Source: a virus (lineage: Duplodnaviria; Heunggongvirae; Uroviricota; Caudoviricetes). Taken from it: a DNA stretch of 11,413 bases. A model generated the notes under the pieces. The model ran no database searches and had not been told where the DNA came from. It saw nothing but the letters and a program-made list of their open reading frames with translations. Position numbers and translations under genes: made by a program. The stretch lies in the IMG/VR virus record IMGVR_UViG_2568526681_000003. One strand, 5' to 3'. Of this stretch, positions 465 through 11,250 are shown one piece after another (the first letter of the stretch is position 1; every line of letters begins with the position of its first letter).

Positions 465-1460
465 CTATGCAGCTTGTCGGAAATTGATAACGCAGTCAGG
501 ACGACGCAGCCCAACGTTGAACAGGCGATATGAGTCCATCACCATCGTTATTTCGCGTTCATCATCCCACTGGCGATTGATGACGCTCTGCGCTTCGACC
601 GTCAACAGTACCGAGGAAGGTTTAAACAGCGTCGCCCTCGTCAGTGCTTCCTCTGCGGTAACGTCATAATCAGCGCCCAGTTCATGCCCGGTAATGGCTT
701 CCTGCGGGTAACTATTCAGCTCGATAACTCGCACCCCAGCGACATAGCCAACACGACGCCATGCGTAATCGTTGCCACTATCCCGGCTGTAACGGACGTT
801 CATCAGCTTCTTATGTTCCATCAGGATGCTGAACCAAGCCGGGTCGATAAGCAGTACCAGCTCCGCCACCGGAATATCTTTCTCAGTCAGGAATCGATTA
901 ACAGCAGCTTTGATAGCGTGAACCAGTTCGTTAGCCGCATCCTCTTCGCTTCCCGTTGTCAGGTCGAGCGAGACAACGTTATCCGTAAGCGGGTTAAACG
1001 TTGGTTGCAGTGTCGGCGGCGGTACGAAATCAGTCGCTTTGAGTAGCTGGATGGTGTGCGCTTCGTCGTAGAATTTAGCGTGAGCAGTACCGATATTGCG
1101 GCTCAGCTCGGCGCGAAAGGTGGGAGCTGTCCAGTCATCCTGATAGTCAATCGGGATGCGGATATAGCTCAGCGTATCCACAGAGATAACCAACTTGTCC
1201 GACTTAACGGCGGTAGGCTCCAGCGATTGCCCTGCGGTTCTGCCCTTCACCTCAAGATCACCACTCAGGCGATCAACACGATATTGGTTGCTAGCTTTCA
1301 GCGGCTTGTATGTGCTCAGCCCCTCGGCGAGAAACACGCTCTTTGCCTCAAGGCGGGTCTGAACGTCCCGGTCATACGCTTCAATGTGAATGTCGTTGTC
1401 AGCATCCACACCGCCCCAGTGCGGGCGGAATTGGTCAGGGGTATAAACATTGTCAGTCAT
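465..1460 (-). CDS. Phage major capsid protein, T7 gp10-like (HK97-fold family)
   Basis: 331-aa ORF with ATG start and GGGAG SD. C-terminal half aligns by eye with recalled T7 gp10: ELVHAIKAAVNRFLTEKDIPVAELVLLIDPAWFSIL vs EIIAALTKARAALTKNYVPAADRVFYCDPDSYSAIL, and VGLRRPDCVINF vs GGLRPEAAGAVVF. Homology is from memory, not a search. Confidence 0.65.
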   Translation of the reverse strand: MTDNVYTPDQFRPHWGGVDADNDIHIEAYDRDVQTRLEAKSVFLAEGLSTYKPLKASNQYRVDRLSGDLEVKGRTAGQSLEPTAVKSDKLVISVDTLSYIRIPIDYQDDWTAPTFRAELSRNIGTAHAKFYDEAHTIQLLKATDFVPPPTLQPTFNPLTDNVVSLDLTTGSEEDAANELVHAIKAAVNRFLTEKDIPVAELVLLIDPAWFSILMEHKKLMNVRYSRDSGNDYAWRRVGYVAGVRVIELNSYPQEAITGHELGADYDVTAEEALTRATLFKPSSVLLTVEAQSVINRQWDDEREITMVMDSYRLFNVGLRRPDCVINFRQAA

Positions 1461-4634: not shown

Positions 4635-6479
4635 TCAGAGGTATTTAGCGATGTACTGCCAGTTGCAGTTTTCAGGGCGGTAGAAGTAAGCAAGCTCATC
4701 AGGCGCAGCATCCAGCGCCAGCGATGACCACAGCAGAAACGCGCGGGCAGGTTGACCATCGCGCCCGGCTCGTCCAATCATCTGAATGAGGTCAGGCAGG
4801 TCATCAGGAATATATGTAACGATGACGTTGCGAATGTCTGGCACATCAGCCCCCAGCCCAAAGGCTTTGGTAGCAATCAGAATCGCGCCCGGCGTAGTGG
4901 CAAACCACTCAGCGTTTGCGTGACGTTCCTCGTTACTCAGGTGCATCGTCTTCGAGTGATATGGCCGCGCCCGGTCGCCTAAGAGTTTCAGGTACGCCCG
5001 CAACGTCTTAAGGTCATTGACGAGAATGAGCGTCTTCTCTTCTTTCGACAGAGCCTCGACCAGACCAATAGCCGCACGGTATCGCTGGCGGCACTGCCTG
5101 ACCGGAATCAACTGGATATTCTCGCGAGCAACATCAGCACGGAATGTGACGTAGTCGCCACGGCATCCCAGCGCCTCCATTAAACCGCGCTCATTTTCAC
5201 GTAGTAGAGTAGCCGTAAACACGCAGCGTTGAGCCGAGGGAAAAGCATTCTGTAGTGTGTGCTGCATTGCGTCGTAAGCTGGGCGGAAATCCCAGTCTTT
5301 GACCGTGTGTGCCTCATCGATAATAAAACGATCAACGCCATAAGCCATCAGCGCCGCGAGAACCTGACTCGACGGAACCAGATGTTCAGGCGAAACAACA
5401 GCAACCCGGAACGCCCCGGCTGCTAGTCCCGCCAGTTGTTGTGCGTTGCGGTGCCTCGGTAGCTTATCGCCAAAGGCCACAGCGTGAATGCCAGCCTCCC
5501 GCAACTGGCGGAGAATCTGACGCTTAAGGGTATTAGTAGGAACCACGATTACAGACAGGCCAATGCCAGCGCGGGACTCATAAATCAATGGATAAGTGAA
5601 GGCGGCGCTTTTGCCATACCCGGTCGGCAGTACGGCAAGCACATCACTGCCACGGGAAAAGATCGCATCAGCAACAGACAACTGCCCCGGCCTCCACTCC
5701 AGCCCATCAGGTGGCAGCAGGCTAACGCGTGCGTTTCGGTCACAGCGAGCCAGCGGGCGGAACTCATACGGTGCAGTATTCAGTGCCGGCACAGACGGCG
5801 AAGCAGCCAAGCCGTTCGGGTCACAATGATGATTAGAACTATTAAATCTATCTTCGGTAGGCTTCGACTCTCCACACCACAATTGCCGAAACTCCCCTGA
5901 GTCTCCGTAGCGTTTGAAATCTGCGTTGCGCATAGCTTCCAGTTGGTTCATGCCCCGACTGATACGGCGCATGGTCTTCTCATCGCAAATCAGGAACTCG
6001 CGGCAGGCTTTGAGAAAAGCATTCTGTCCGGTTGTCGCTTCCGGCACGGCGTGCTCGCGCGGTTTCAATGCGGCATCGTCTACGCGAACACCGGGAAAAT
6101 CTGGCGGCAGCGGGTCAACATAACGAGCGGGCTTCTTATTCAACCATTGCTCAATCTCGGCGCGTCGGCAATGAATCGCGTCGCCGGGCTGGATGACTTG
6201 CCGCAACCCAGTGTCAGAGCGCTGTTTTTGTTTCTTCGGTTGAACACCGTGCAGCGTTCGCCACTCCCGCAAGGTCATCGCGGAGCCATCTGCATTGTAA
6301 TAAAACTCTTCGGTCTTTGTGTTGTATGCCGCCTTAACGGGTTTACGCTTTACAGGGCATATCTTGGAACGTCGAATAACAATCCCGTCAGCGATCATTT
6401 GCTGTACATCTGCGTTCGCAGTATTGAGCGGGTCAGCGTCGGCAGCTTGCACAAGCAGGCGGCGTAGGTTTGTTGGCAT
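4635..6479 (-). CDS. Superfamily-2 DNA helicase, RecQ-like core with ~280-aa N-terminal domain of unknown function
   Basis: 614-aa ORF, ATG with GGAGA SD. Motifs: Walker A LPTGYGKS, motif II IIDEAHTVKDWDFRPAY (compare RecQ DEAHCISQWGHDFRPEY as recalled), motif III FTAT, motif VI MIGRAGRDGQ. N-terminal 280 aa is Cys-containing with no match I recognise. Confidence 0.88.
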   Translation of the reverse strand: MPTNLRRLLVQAADADPLNTANADVQQMIADGIVIRRSKICPVKRKPVKAAYNTKTEEFYYNADGSAMTLREWRTLHGVQPKKQKQRSDTGLRQVIQPGDAIHCRRAEIEQWLNKKPARYVDPLPPDFPGVRVDDAALKPREHAVPEATTGQNAFLKACREFLICDEKTMRRISRGMNQLEAMRNADFKRYGDSGEFRQLWCGESKPTEDRFNSSNHHCDPNGLAASPSVPALNTAPYEFRPLARCDRNARVSLLPPDGLEWRPGQLSVADAIFSRGSDVLAVLPTGYGKSAAFTYPLIYESRAGIGLSVIVVPTNTLKRQILRQLREAGIHAVAFGDKLPRHRNAQQLAGLAAGAFRVAVVSPEHLVPSSQVLAALMAYGVDRFIIDEAHTVKDWDFRPAYDAMQHTLQNAFPSAQRCVFTATLLRENERGLMEALGCRGDYVTFRADVARENIQLIPVRQCRQRYRAAIGLVEALSKEEKTLILVNDLKTLRAYLKLLGDRARPYHSKTMHLSNEERHANAEWFATTPGAILIATKAFGLGADVPDIRNVIVTYIPDDLPDLIQMIGRAGRDGQPARAFLLWSSLALDAAPDELAYFYRPENCNWQYIAKYL

Positions 6480-6940
6480 GGTGAAATCTCCAGAAAATAG
6501 GGGTAGGTATTAGCTCAGGTTGGGGCGGTGGTACAGTTGCGGCAGACTCTCTGCCCTTATAGAGGTTTTCATGTCGGCAACAGTGTCAGTGTCTTTATCT
6601 GCCTTAATAGTCACTTTCAAAATCGGAGAGTTTGTCTCGCTTCGGGAGTTATTCTTTCTCCTTAGTAGATACTTTCATTAGGTCAATTTTTAACCACCTC
6701 CTCGCTAAGCCTTACTGAGCCTGGGCTGGCAATACTTAACAACGCGATTTTTGTCGGTCAAAAGCGGGAAAGTAATGCTCTATATCTCCTTATTAGTAGC
6801 CTTTAAAATTAAAAATATAAGTTACTGATATCAATAGATAATTATGAAAGTGACTATAGTGATAAGTATCGCTAGATACGCAGAGCGAGCGCGGCGCAGC
6901 CGAAACAAGCGAGCGCCGAACGGATGACGGATGGCAGACC

Positions 6941-6995
6941 GTAGGACTGACAGACGGCAGACAGTGAAGACAGTAGGACAGGTGACAGACAGTAG
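6941..6995. repeat. Cluster of GACAG pentamer repeats (six copies in 6949-6992) plus duplicated GTAGGAC and CAGTAG motifs; iteron-like
   Basis: Direct reading: GACAG at 6949, 6960, 6969, 6977, 6984, 6988; GTAGGAC at 6941 and 6974. Lies in a T-depleted purine-rich stretch of the plus strand (~6880-7350). Confidence 0.6.
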
Positions 6996-7674
6996 ACCGT
7001 GACGGCGTGCCATAGCTGGCAGTAGCACAGCAGGCAGTAAGACCGATGACCAACGGCTAAGACCTGAAAGGAAACGAACAAGGAAGATGATTGAATGCTA
7101 CAGAAATGAATTGAAGATGTTATGAAGAATACCGTACCGATATCAGGATAAGATTGAATACAGAAGTAATACCGATACAGAGTACCGTCCCACTACACAA
7201 CCCCGCCGCGTTGACCGCCCGGCAAGCACGGTTGCGTGGAGGGCCGAGCATCAGCAGCGGACGCAGGCCGATGAATGAGCCGAAGGCGAATGAAAGCGGA
7301 CTAGCGGACGCGAGAAGCGTAGCCAGTGGTGAGCGTGAAGCGATACACTGATTAGGAGATGGGGATGTAGGGGAAGAACCCTTTTTTGTACATGCATATA
7401 AAATGCAGCTTTAAAGCAAGCCAAGCAGCACCAGCCCGCGTCTCGTCTGGCTTTGTAGATGGACAACACAGCCTTTGATCCCTTCCCCTGCCCCATCCCT
7501 CGAATTGTTCAGTGATAAATCACATTCACAATCTGATCTTGATGCTCATCGTCTGGCACGGCTAAAGCCCCGCCACCTCTTCACATCAAGAGCCGCAAGT
7601 GATACGAAATACATTATAAATCATAGCATTAAGACATCACGCATAACATAACCCTCTGAAATAAATACAAAAGC

Positions 7675-7742
7675 TGTAGGTCATCCATCACCCACAGCCC
7701 AGTAACGGCCAGTCGTAGCACCTCGTTCGCTTGTAGGTCATC
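7675..7742. repeat. 11-bp exact direct repeat TGTAGGTCATC (7675-7685 and 7732-7742), second copy overlapping the recombinase stop codon
   Basis: Direct reading; both copies are followed by similar (C)ATC(A)CC extensions. Confidence 0.6.
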
Positions 7743-8316
7743 ATCCCTCGCCCTTGTTCCAGTGGCGTTTAACGGTGCTCACGCTAACGCCGAGACGCTT
7801 CGCTACCTTCGATTGAGACAGCCCCTCACTCCGCAGCTCCTGCACCTTTTGAGTGGTGTCGGTGGCTTCCTTGCGTCCCAGCTTAACGCCATTGGCTTTC
7901 GCCTTCTCCAGCCCGTCCAGCGTCCTCTCACGGATACGGTTTCGCTCGAACTCAGCAAAAGCTCCAAACATCTGGCGGATTAGCTTGCCCTCAGATGAAG
8001 TCAGATCACGCGCTGGCAGGTCAAGCGACACCACCTTCACGCCGCGTTCTAGCAGCATGTCGATGGTCTGCTGTACGTCGATGTTGTCACGCCCCAGCCT
8101 GTCCAGTTTCAGCACGACAAGCTGATCTCCCGCTTCCAGCTTGTGCTCAACCATCGCCCGAAACTTAGGGCGCTGCATAGCCTGAACACTACCGGAAATG
8201 TCCTCGCTGATTACCCGGCTTTCAGGCACCTTGTACCCGGCACGCTCAATAGCCAGCACCTGATTCTGCGTATCCTGCTCGCGTGTTGAAACGCGGCAGT
8301 AGATAAAAGTCCTCAT
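7741..8316 (-). CDS. Small serine recombinase (resolvase/invertase family) with C-terminal HTH
   Basis: 191-aa ORF, ATG with GAGGTG SD. N-terminus MRTFIYCRVSTREQ carries the catalytic Ser motif; VVLKLDRLGRD and a C-terminal HTH (LSQSKVAKRLGVSVSTVKRH) match the gamma-delta resolvase / Hin layout as recalled. Confidence 0.9.
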   Translation of the reverse strand: MRTFIYCRVSTREQDTQNQVLAIERAGYKVPESRVISEDISGSVQAMQRPKFRAMVEHKLEAGDQLVVLKLDRLGRDNIDVQQTIDMLLERGVKVVSLDLPARDLTSSEGKLIRQMFGAFAEFERNRIRERTLDGLEKAKANGVKLGRKEATDTTQKVQELRSEGLSQSKVAKRLGVSVSTVKRHWNKGEG

Positions 8317-8874
8317 GGTTCACCTCACCCGTCTGGTATCACAAAACGGTAGCATCATTTCATTGGTGGTATCATTAAGTCAAACCCTAAATTAATGACA
8401 CCAGATAGTAATCACTCAGACAGGTAGCAAGAATCGAACGATTGATGACACTAAAGCCAAAACAATAACGACAGCCAAGAGAAGCGCCAAGCATCAACGC
8501 AAAGTGCTTTAACAGTGGAGATTCAGGAGTGATTTAGCGTTTCAAGAGAAGAATAACCCTAACCCACAGCCTCACGGTCAGAACATGAAACAGGGTCATA
8601 AACGCCACAGAGGAAGGCAAATCGATATACAGCCCGCCCAGCCTTCGGCTGGGAGAGGCGCACGGGGGAAGTTGAAGCCTTAACCGTCGAGGGAGGGGCA
8701 ACCATAAACGTGCAATTTTTCAAGCCGGGGATTCAGTTATAGGCTAACGGTAGAATGCGGCTTGATACGGGGAGTGTTCACGCATCTGGTACAAATACCT
8801 AACTTCGTGAGCAACTGCCCCATATAGGCCACATCTGGCAAGTTTTGAGGTTATATAATTTACCATTCACGCTT

Positions 8875-9873
8875 TTACTTAATTGCAATCGGCGCGGATG
8901 GGATTGCTGTCAAAGAAAGAACCCGCATTTTGAAGTCTTCATACTGTTCCCCCTCACGCAATGAAAGTTCAGTTAAAGAATAGAAACGGTCGGTTGATGG
9001 CGATTCACTACGAGCTTTTGCCATATCCAACCGAGAAACATTAATCACAGTCCAGCACTCTGTATAACCCCTAGCTCGGGCTTTTTGGTGGCTCTTTTCA
9101 GCTTCGCCAATACGGTTATGGATATTTGAAACATCTGTCCCGCTTTTGACTTCAATAGCTACGACATTGCGGTAATTCTGATGAGCCATTTCTTCCCGAA
9201 TGATTATGTCTGGGTCCGCTGCAAACTCTATGAGAACCGGGCGACCTGTTGCACTGTTCACTTCAATAGCACTTTCTCGAACCTCTGCGGTAGCGTGCGC
9301 AACAATTTCTCGAATAATCTCAAACACTAACACAATTCCATTTGTGCCTCGTTGATTGTTAGCCCCGCCTCTTAATTGCGGCCCCACAGTGAGCAGAGTC
9401 AGGTCATCCAACAATTCACGGCTTACGCGTAACGGCCCAACTCCAGATAAAAGGGCAGAAGCAGCCCCGCAAAAAGCGGCGCATAATTCAGGTATTTTGG
9501 GTTTTGCCAGTTTACCAATAACACCCTTCACTTCCATTGATTTGAAACTACCAACACCAAACCCTTTATCTCTGCCATAAAACTCTTTCTGACTATATCC
9601 CATTAGCAAACGATAATAGCCCAATAGATAAGGGTTTTCTTCTAACACTGCGGGAACAGGGAATAAAAGTTCGGCCCGTAACCCGTATGTGGCTAAGGTT
9701 GCCAGATCCGCCTTGGGAACATATTCACCGAGTTGCGCATCAAGGGCGACAATATCCATATTACGCACGGTTTCTAACAACGCATTTTGAAGATAAACAC
9801 CGCGAAATCTTTTTAAAGCTAAAGCAAAATCGACCTGCTGTTTCGGTTCTGGGAAAGTGATTTTTACAGTCAT
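8875..9873 (-). CDS. Putative Type II restriction endonuclease (PD-ExK nuclease) cognate to the upstream methyltransferase
   Basis: 332-aa ORF whose ATG (9873-9871) overlaps the methyltransferase TGA (9872-9870). Candidate catalytic motif ADPD...(18 aa)...IEVK. Lower GC than the phage-like module. No family assignment possible without a search. Confidence 0.6.
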   Translation of the reverse strand: MTVKITFPEPKQQVDFALALKRFRGVYLQNALLETVRNMDIVALDAQLGEYVPKADLATLATYGLRAELLFPVPAVLEENPYLLGYYRLLMGYSQKEFYGRDKGFGVGSFKSMEVKGVIGKLAKPKIPELCAAFCGAASALLSGVGPLRVSRELLDDLTLLTVGPQLRGGANNQRGTNGIVLVFEIIREIVAHATAEVRESAIEVNSATGRPVLIEFAADPDIIIREEMAHQNYRNVVAIEVKSGTDVSNIHNRIGEAEKSHQKARARGYTECWTVINVSRLDMAKARSESPSTDRFYSLTELSLREGEQYEDFKMRVLSLTAIPSAPIAIK

Positions 9874-10772
9874 GCTGCCGCTATCCTTATCACATTAGTT
9901 TTATCACCCTGCAACCGATTAACCGCAATCTCAACATACTCAGGGTTTAACTCAATACCAACATATTGTCGATCTTCATCTTGGCAGACTACCCCCACGG
10001 TACCCGAGCCAAAGAAAGGGTCTAACACAAAATCACCCGGCTCAGTTGAAGCAAGGATACATGGCCGAATTAAATCAGGTGGGAATGTTGCAAAGTGCGC
10101 CCCTGAAAAGGGTTTCGTATTAACATTCCAAACAGTGCGACGGTTTCTTAGCCCACCATTGTCTCTTGGTTCTCTCACAGCCTGCCAATCATAAAAATAT
10201 TTCTCAGATTTTGTCAGCATGAATAAGAACTCATGGGAGCGAGTGGGACGGTCCTTAACGCTTTCAGGCATAGCATTTGGCTTGTTCCATACAATATCAC
10301 TCCGTAAATACCAACCATCGTTTTGTAGTGCAAAAGCAAGCCGCCAAGGGATACCAATAAGATCCTTCGGTTTCAATCCTTCTGGCGTATCTGGCCGAAC
10401 AGTCATAGCACGAGCTGGGTTCTTTTTATCTGGTGCTCTGTAACCGCGATTACCGCTTGTGTAACCATCCCCGATGTTAAGCCAAAGGGTGCCATCATCA
10501 CTTAAAACTCGTTTTACTTCGGCGAAAATGGTCACAAGGCGATTAATGAACTGGTGCATACTACTTTCTAAGCCAATCTGTTCATCAATCCCATAGTCAC
10601 GCAATCCCCAATAAGGTGGAGAAGTAACAACACAACGGACCGAACCACTAGGAAGCCTTCGCAATACTGTTAAAGCATCCCCCTCAAAAAGGGTAGGACC
10701 GTCCAACTCCAAAGGTTCGGCGCGATGAAGCCTCTCAACAGTTGGTGGTAAGCTACTCTTTTTCTGCGGCAT
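9870..10772 (-). CDS. Beta-class amino-DNA methyltransferase (N4-cytosine or N6-adenine; SPPY motif favours N4-cytosine)
   Basis: Motif IV VTSPPYW near the N-terminus and motif I DPFFGSGT near the C-terminus give the beta-class order. I place the start at ATG 10772 (AAGAGGA SD 6 nt upstream) rather than the track start at 10802, which is a TTG; this gives 300 aa. Confidence 0.88.
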   Translation of the reverse strand: MPQKKSSLPPTVERLHRAEPLELDGPTLFEGDALTVLRRLPSGSVRCVVTSPPYWGLRDYGIDEQIGLESSMHQFINRLVTIFAEVKRVLSDDGTLWLNIGDGYTSGNRGYRAPDKKNPARAMTVRPDTPEGLKPKDLIGIPWRLAFALQNDGWYLRSDIVWNKPNAMPESVKDRPTRSHEFLFMLTKSEKYFYDWQAVREPRDNGGLRNRRTVWNVNTKPFSGAHFATFPPDLIRPCILASTEPGDFVLDPFFGSGTVGVVCQDEDRQYVGIELNPEYVEIAVNRLQGDKTNVIRIAAA

Positions 10773-11250
10773 AACAATTCCTCTTACACATGATTCTAAC
10801 AAGCATTATGCCCGTAATCGCCGATACAATGTTGGCCGGTAGTGTAAACCGCGATGGGTGAGCCAACAACACACCCATAGAAAGTTTTCATTACCCAACA
10901 ACAGGTACAGCGGAGATATAAATTCAACCAATAGCTAGCCATAAGCGCCGTGTTGGGTATCCAAACAAACTGCGCCGTAGGCGTATCATCAGAAATGTCA
11001 CTCATTCGCTCTCTTATCGAGTACCGTTCGTTTATGGCACGGCGAACACCACGGTAGAGCCTGCCGCTTTCCCGGACAGGTTAGGCTTCCCAACATTTGC
11101 TCGTTTATCCACTGCGTGTCATCACGACAGGCGATTGTGGGACACCGCGCTAAGTGCGGAACAAATGAGTGTGATGGGATTGTTTAGAGACGGTGGCTAC
11201 GTCATAGCTTTCAAGTTGAGTCAGTACGTGTTTGACGCTTGGAACTACAC

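Follow-up and report, generated by a model that had tools for sequence, protein, structure and literature searches.

An 11,413-nucleotide viral sequence (IMG/VR record IMGVR_UViG_2568526681_000003, hereafter the window) contains an unannotated gap of 1.26 kb (6480-7740) between the genes for a RecQ-like helicase and a serine recombinase, and within it lies a region of about 0.5 kb in which the plus strand is strongly depleted in T. What is this region for? Working from the letters of the sequence alone, an original prediction proposed either an iteron origin of replication or a structured non-coding RNA of roughly 500 nt. We propose instead that the region is a unit which the polymerase of a helper phage transcribes upon infection, carried by an island that has features of a satellite of Bonnellvirus, a virulent genus of T7-like Autographiviridae with their own RNA polymerase. 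We put the probability of this reading at about 55%. It leans on what the sequences display directly: homology to the helper, co-variation of a promoter motif (P3) with the helper polymerase, coincidence of the T-poor domain with a promoter-to-terminator unit, and one RNA helix.

The T-poor region lies between a phage promoter motif and a terminator

T makes up 8.5% of positions 6880-7080 and 13.6% of 6861-7368, compared to 23.3% of the whole window. The flanks have 32.8% (6480-6860) and 23.1% (7390-7740), and normal composition resumes directly after the terminator (Table 1). The AT skew reaches its maximum of +0.52 within 6901-7100, confirming the strand asymmetry, and together with the composition counts it bears out the T depletion over some 500 bp of the plus strand upstream of the helicase operon. 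The extent first given, 6850-7390, had to be adjusted to a start at about 6859 and an end at 7387.

The short repeats described in the region are all present. Six GACAG pentamers fall within 45 bp (6949-6992, at 6949, 6960, 6969, 6977, 6984 and 6988), compared to 1.5 expected under a first-order Markov model of 6880-7050 (p = 0.0025); GTAGGAC units are duplicated at 6941 and 6973, GATTGAAT is repeated 63 bp apart at 7089 and 7152, and ATACCG occurs at 7129 and 7169. The weak hairpin followed by six T was also found by the terminator scan, with the hairpin at 7369-7383 and the T-run after it. This T-run, at +523, is the first run of at least four T downstream of P3.

P3 is an exact match to a 16-mer phage motif, for which 0.07 matches are expected by chance in the window. 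It points rightward, into the T-poor stretch and away from the helicase operon. In the three phages for which we checked positions (glasur, Kc261 and J8-65) the motif, TTATGAAAG(TG)ACTATAG, is found before the DNA-metabolism genes, again just after the polymerase gene and before the structural genes, and a third time, reversed, at the left end. The copies on the coding strand before the middle and late blocks are at 6971 and 20845 in glasur, 5847 and 19775 in Kc261, and 5664 and 19630 in J8-65.

The core of the motif varies by phage while all copies within one phage are alike, and the cores GTGAC, GCTAC and GTAAC..G pair with the polymerase residues INLMGIHG, LHLMGVHQ and IKLMGVHA, respectively. 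Differences between the glasur and Kc261 polymerases are among the densest in that stretch, which we take to correspond to the T7 specificity loop from an alignment to the T7 sequence. The P3 copies of the satellites show every core class seen in helpers plus one more, GCATC. T7 promoters have the consensus ...ACTCACTATA/G, ending CACTATA/G (the slash precedes the first transcribed base), and the motif has the same form, a conserved element of about 17-23 bp that ends in (C/A)CTATA and is followed by a G at +1. From these sequence features we infer that P3 is a promoter of the helper polymerase, with initiation predicted at G6859 by analogy with T7. No sigma-70 promoter exceeded the scan threshold in 6300-7900.

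Table 1. Features of the window discussed in the text. A slash marks the predicted start or cut; coordinates are plus-strand positions.
Feature	Position	Strand	Remarks
Putative promoter P3 of the Bonnellvirus single-subunit RNA polymerase, TTATGAAAGTGACTATA/G	6842-6859	+	Exact match to helper motif
Conserved leader	6860-6935	+	5' hairpin GTATCGCTAGATAC (6866-6879), two AGCGAGCGC repeats, two ACGGATG repeats
GACAG/GTAGGAC block	6936-7045	+	Copied from Bonnellvirus DNA between leftward promoter and terminal repeat
A-rich, T-poor variable segment	7046-7169	+	GATTGAAT and (A)TACCG repeats; satellite-specific, no phage match
Conserved satellite-specific element (part B)	7170-7368	+	Helix P1, three AGCGGAC, TTAGGAGA and ATG-TAG
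Intrinsic-type terminator, hairpin GGGGAAGAACCC and T6	7369-7387	+	From terminator scan; closes the T-poor unit
AT-rich spacer between divergent putative promoters	6813-6841		About 84% A+T over 6800-6849
Four promoter-like repeats	6548-6812	-	6812 to 6786, 6681 to 6656, 6623 to 6600, 6570 to 6548; facing the helicase operon
Copy of helper left-end cleavage site, CCCCGGCTTGAAAAATTGCACGTTTATGGTTGCCCCTCCC/TCGAC	8686-8730	-	87-93% identical to phages; predicted cut between 8692 and 8691
Serine recombinase, resolvase/invertase family	7741-8316	-	Position kept in all relatives
RecQ-like SF2 helicase	4635-6479	-	First gene of satellite operon
Satellite major capsid gene	465-1460	-	Protein 56-57% identical to Bonnellvirus capsid

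The unit shares its layout with the left end of the helper genome

Comparing the repeat block with phages, as had been suggested, gave a clear answer. Positions 6816-7045 match unannotated DNA in 15 phage records of about 42 kb each, with 87-94% identity; the six records that we opened are all Bonnellvirus. The match falls after the endolysin gene, the last of the genome, and before the SAMase gene, the first, at the junction of the genome ends. The capsid genes share only about 65% identity at the DNA level, and we take the block to be either constrained or exchanged. Two alleles of the GACAG block each occur in phages and satellites alike, which shows repeated exchange between them.

In all ten phages compared, the leftward promoter opens onto 483-535 nt with 7.6-9.4% T, a stretch that includes the terminal repeat and ends at the cut site; the first run of four T lies 29 nt beyond the cut. 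In the window, 523 nt with 13.6% T separate P3 from the first T-run. The parts of the unit that are specific to the satellite are likewise T-poor, and the edge of the domain coincides with the terminator. The T-poor composition is thus held across the unit whatever the ancestry of the sequence, which argues for selection on the transcript or the template.

Phage and satellite also agree in the order of their elements, which runs from the cut site and the repeat over the pause motif and the T-poor DNA to the reversed promoter, the AT-rich spacer and the first genes. The satellite differs by an inserted recombinase gene and by the conserved element of part B. The arrangement is a feature of the helpers in its own right, with about 0.5 kb of T-poor DNA covering the terminal repeat in 10 of 10 Bonnellvirus genomes.

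All three minus-strand frames are free of stops over 6872-7028, and the original prediction had called these open reading frames composition artefacts. This view holds, as they match no Pfam or PHROG family and are broken by single-base indels between relatives. A coding region or decayed gene was rejected on the same grounds for all five open reading frames of the region. Several Bonnellvirus records have a 'hypothetical protein' annotated over the T-poor terminal region on either strand (records L006 41898-42374, L007 41017-41556, L047 957-1472, L048 772-1320 and L046 919-1311). These are probably composition artefacts too, open because stop codons cannot form in T-poor DNA.

Anatomy of the predicted transcript

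By history the region consists of three parts: 6859-7045 is derived from the helper, 7046-7169 is variable and 7170-7368 is specific to the satellite. In the leader, a core of about 55 nt (roughly 6865-6917) is nearly invariant among some 25 distinct phage and satellite sequences, and the 5' hairpin appears in both the minimum free energy and the centroid folds. The variable segment is replaced by unrelated sequence in the relatives L010, L013-L017 and L022.

Part B is kept in all relatives examined (six genera) and in 21 metagenome contigs; a covariance model matched satellites only, with no counterpart in phage genomes. Its helix P1 pairs 7217-7220 with 7241-7244 around a conserved loop of 20 nt. 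The pairing survives two-sided changes in separate lineages and a paired A:U insertion, and none of 500 shuffles reached the observed covariation. The divergent copy in L022, found later by the covariance model, replaces GCC/GGC by GUG/CAC and so supports the helix independently. Wobble pairs leave the strand of P1 unsettled, and a second, inner helix is less secure. The terminator hairpin is conserved in most relatives, and the remainder have a different hairpin at this position.

The stability of the fold is unremarkable, with z-scores of about 0 (GACAG block), -1.4 (3' part) and -1.8 (whole unit), and a scan of the whole window against Rfam 15 (E <= 1) returned nothing in the region. The idea of a structured plus-strand RNA of about 500 nt is consequently retained in part. 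A transcription unit is supported by P3, the T6 at +523, the matching T-poor domain and the lack of a coding signal; structure is supported locally, P1 being the only helix with covariation, but not globally, given the weak z-scores.

Several smaller features of the unit deserve mention. AGCGGAC occurs at 7256, 7295 and 7303 in one variant of the element, and the other variant has two AGCGGGC at corresponding places, which indicates that the copies change in concert; the two variants do not track overall helicase similarity. At 7347-7368, just before the terminator, ATG-TAG comes after the Shine-Dalgarno-like TTAGGAGA, with ATG-TAA instead in other variants. The UUAGGAG is retained in even the most divergent relatives, and L010, L013 and L023 have AAA in place of the stop codon.

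Two candidate functions of the short motifs were rejected. GGA, counted 4 times in 6880-7050 with 4.0 expected, is not enriched as it would be in a CsrA sponge of the CsrB type. Primase sites had been considered on account of the frequent GTC on the minus strand, which follows from the GACAG repeats (14 GAC compared to 7.4 expected); the strand logic is also mismatched to replication of the left end.

A copy of the helper cut site and an array of opposite promoter-like repeats

The J8-65 record has direct terminal repeats of 259 bp, of which the left one begins TCGACCC, inside the block ...CCTCCC/TCGAC. The match at 8686-8730 spans this exact left physical end. Each of the eight satellite loci taken from other genomes has the block too, oriented alike and 2.15-2.65 kb upstream of the helicase gene. 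In the phages, a pause-like motif, GGGTATCTGTCTCTTTT, follows the cut at a distance of about 256 nt, directly beyond the right edge of the terminal repeat, and L010 and L023 among the relatives have one that is nearly identical. In the window there is only a weaker motif, ATCTGGT, on the minus strand (about 8409-8403), about 280 nt from the cut and followed by a T-rich stretch. Cut site and ATCTGGT motif together look like a mimic of the concatemer junction of the helper. No metagenome contig was found to start or end at the predicted cut site, and none had terminal repeats.

The interval 8420-8690 is also T-poor, with 14.8% T. The terminal repeat of J8-65 (record L009, 1-259) is full of alternating purine-pyrimidine runs (GTGCGCGTGCGCGTGC...), which are prone to form left-handed DNA; the satellite has nothing comparable.

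On the other side of P3, the AT-rich spacer is homologous from 6816 onward to the phage DNA upstream of P3. Beyond it, four promoter-like repeats on the minus strand face the helicase operon. They have the form (A/T)TGAAAG-N-CTA-N-TAAGG with cores GGCTA, GTATC, GTGAC and AACCT, and the copy at 6620-6605 is identical to P3 at 13 of 13 core bases (TGAAAGTGACTAT). Relatives have up to five or six such motifs with other cores. These repeats may form an array of promoters for helper polymerases of differing specificity, and the diversity of cores in a single array suggests that polymerase specificity is the object of an arms race.

The source island has features of a phage satellite

With 99% identity, the window corresponds to an island in the chromosome of Escherichia coli A16 that adjoins tRNA-Leu. 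The island runs from an integrase at one end through variable cargo, nuclease genes, the capsid gene, a scaffold-like gene and small open reading frames to the helicase, the gap, the serine recombinase and further variable cargo, with tRNA-Leu at the other end. Of 5426 complete E. coli genomes, only 55-59 have the gap sequence, in single copy and chromosomal every time. Relatives come from six other genera, among them Kosakonia, Kluyvera, Enterobacter, Trabulsiella and Rosenbergiella. The viral contig collection holds one copy of the island only.

Of a full virion and packaging gene set, the island has just capsid, scaffold-like and HNH genes, and no terminase, portal or tail gene is annotated in it. 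The scanned genes also gave no annotation, Pfam or PHROG match for markers of PICI, cfPICI, P4-like or PLE satellites (alpA, pri-rep, portal, protease, small terminase, psu/delta/sid/alpha). Carrying the end-cleavage site of a helper without a terminase is a hallmark of satellites, and these sequence features point to a satellite of Bonnellvirus.

The helicase has an N-terminal domain of 260 aa that is specific to the family; searches with it gave close relatives only, and its AlphaFold model (predicted local distance difference test score 38.8) is too poor to use. Domain scans recognised no initiator or primase domain in the helicase.

A model for helper-dependent transcription

We hypothesize that upon infection the helper polymerase would start transcription both at P3 and at the promoter-like repeats, which point the other way. 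The repeats would switch on the operon from helicase to capsid. P3 would yield an untranslated, U-poor RNA of about 0.53 kb ending at the hairpin and T6, the first 190 nt or so being common to the left end of the helper and the last 200 nt or so being satellite-specific and containing the helix. Free of weak rU:dA pairs, such an RNA should form a very stable hybrid with its template, a property that would fit priming or strand opening. Divergent transcription around the AT-rich spacer, combined with a stable hybrid, may then provide, in cis, a helper-dependent start for satellite replication or for recognition by the terminase. The analogy is with the promoter-origins phiOL and phiOR of T7 and with the transcription-coupled processing of T7 concatemers.

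T7 promoters serve as replication origins, and the region around the left end and concatemer junction of T7 and T3 contains the short-repeat arrays SRL and SRR, the secondary origins phiOL and phiOR, the leftward promoter A0 and the junction pause site; the CCTAAAG repeats of T7 are depleted in G. Bonnellvirus and its satellite resemble this arrangement in having a phage-polymerase promoter and strand-asymmetric short-repeat arrays beside the terminal repeat and, in the helpers, an ATCTGT-type motif just past the right boundary of that repeat. They differ in that the phage-polymerase promoter points leftward, through the repeat toward the genome end, in that the asymmetry is a depletion of T and not of G, and in that the satellite unit is cut off by a terminator and lies apart from the cut site. 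A strong promoter reading into a stretch whose RNA would form a stable hybrid, next to an AT-rich segment, also recalls ColE1 RNA II and the primary origin of T7, except that the AT-rich segment is here upstream of the promoter. T7 polymerase pauses at the concatemer junction and recruits the terminase (PMC3276506, citing Zhang and Studier 2004), so that transcription is tied to end formation in T7 as it may be here.

A number of observations weigh against the model. The satellite unit terminates 1.3 kb short of the cut site and so cannot work exactly as that of the phage does. The GC skew favours a hybrid in the satellite (+0.2) but not in the phages (30% G, 31-34% C), and the AT-rich stretch lies upstream of P3 whereas T7 origins have theirs downstream. 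Conservation is fairly uniform over the whole intergenic region in satellites that bear P3, with the block not singled out. A few copies of the phage motif overlap the starts of coding sequences. Finally, several relatives (L010, L013-L017 and L022) lack P3 and the leader or have them in decayed form, so that these are not indispensable to the family.

Alternative explanations

The last two points on conservation also bear on the idea that satellites and helpers recombine around the promoters they share and that the T-poor block is a recombination scar which came along with P3; the promoter alone would then be of importance, if anything is. Alleles from phages and satellites are intermixed, showing exchange, several relatives have lost the block or have it in decayed form, and it is no better conserved than the neighbouring intergenic DNA. 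A scar would leave unexplained why the leader of about 55 nt stays almost invariant in some 25 sequences while the promoter core and the flanks vary, why satellite-specific parts are T-poor too in a domain that stops exactly at the terminator, and why the length of the unit agrees with that of the phage; we regard it as rather unlikely. Another possibility is that the direct repeats are bound as DNA by the small terminase of the helper, transcription being incidental. In its favour, the satellite has the helper cut site yet no terminase gene, some of its relatives have a phage-like pause motif, the block consists of short direct-repeat arrays and adjoins the terminal repeat in the phage, and packaging specificity in T3 and T7 maps within 5% of the genome ends (PMC3276506). 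But relatives that lack the block retain the same cut site, 1.6 kb including a gene separate block and cut site in the satellite, and the T depletion across satellite-specific sequence is not accounted for, which makes terminase binding an unlikely explanation.

Could the RNA act in trans instead, as a look-alike of the RNA from the helper left end or as a structured RNA peculiar to the satellite, and titrate or guide some factor of the helper or the host, in interference or regulation? Its promoter and terminator are both defined, its 5' 190 nt equal the predicted RNA of the helper, and its 3' part has the conserved helix and loop and, near the end, the conserved UUAGGAG. With no Rfam family, a weak global folding signal, no enrichment of GGA that would indicate a CsrB-like sponge, a helix whose strand is unsettled by wobble pairs and a 3' part retained in relatives without P3, we consider this improbable. 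The iteron origin of the original prediction, bound by the helicase or initiator of the satellite itself, fares worst and is in our view very improbable. The helicase gene next door, the adjacent AT-rich stretch, the short direct repeats (six GACAG, three AGCGGAC) and the concerted AGCGGAC/AGCGGGC variants made it plausible. However, the repeats are short and irregular without regular units of 17-22 bp: TRF reported only a 9-nt unit with 3.8 copies and 75% matches, and a 23-nt repeat family has three copies with 74% identity at spacings of 23 and 35. The GACAG block is common to phages that lack the helicase of the island and is missing or decayed in several relatives, the element variants do not follow helicase similarity, and the RecQ-like helicase has no recognised initiator or primase domain.

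Relation to known satellites

Satellites that carry cis-signals of their helpers include P4 (the cos site of P2), SaPI/PICI (pac or cos of the helper), cfPICI (with capsid genes of their own) and PLE (with virulent ICP1 as helper); these four established families rely on temperate helpers or on the myophage ICP1. The island resembles them as an integrated element with an integrase that lacks most virion genes and carries a DNA-end signal of the helper; it shares a capsid gene of its own with cfPICI and a virulent helper with PLE. It differs from all of them in lacking their marker genes, in having as helper a T7-like podophage with direct terminal repeats, and in that activation would use promoters of the helper polymerase and not derepression or a transactivator.

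We know of no satellite of a T7-like podophage. Searches of the full-text literature, which left most subscription journals outside their coverage, gave no description of satellites of T7-like, Autographiviridae or Bonnellvirus phages, nor of the leftward promoter and T-poor end region of Bonnellvirus, and the satellite family is apparently undescribed. Copying of cis-signals from the helper is known from P4, PICI and PLE; activation via the helper's own polymerase promoters would be new. If our reading is correct, it would add a new pairing of satellite and helper and a new, simple induction logic, in which infection is sensed through promoters read only by the polymerase of the invader. The full picture, of an undescribed family living on virulent T7-like phages with polymerase-sensing promoter arrays, a copied concatemer junction, a U-poor start that forms hybrids and the same unnoticed device in its helpers, we advance tentatively, at somewhat less than even odds. 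The model is open to experiment, since E. coli E2348/69 has the island, with a P3 core (GTGTC) that matches those of altidsur, mellemsur and LF82-23, and Bonnellvirus isolates able to grow on K-12 exist.

Other features of the window

In all relatives examined, the serine recombinase gene directly follows the stretch that resembles a terminal repeat. An imperfect dyad, TTCAGTGAT-AA-ATCACATTCA, lies at 7508-7528, about 210 nt downstream of this gene, where conservation within the gap is highest (97.5% mean identity). Packaged DNA could be circularised or resolved at this site. A promoter segment inverted by the serine recombinase was considered and rejected: the full-length E. coli matches listed are all single collinear pieces, none of them inverted, the dyad is present in single copy, and repeat pairs across the island occur at chance level only.

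The cargo differs among strains. The window has an XcyI restriction-modification pair, and the island ends carry this pair with a YafO toxin, TIR-domain proteins or a DUF3800 protein (window 8875-10802; L002 1-771 and 11068-12871; L022 5136-6275). The ends thus behave as hotspots of defence genes.

TGTACA occurs four times in the window (1956, 1970, 6403 and 7387), and no function was found for these repeats. The copy at 7387, already described as lying beside the hairpin, is indeed there, within TTTTTTGTACATG right after the terminator, and is kept in most relatives.

A second T-poor stretch of 300 nt, 1461-1760, has 13% T on the plus strand and is as T-poor as the region studied here. It overlaps a real gene on the minus strand, 1529-1876 (PHROG 21723, E = 1e-52), located between the capsid and scaffold-like genes.

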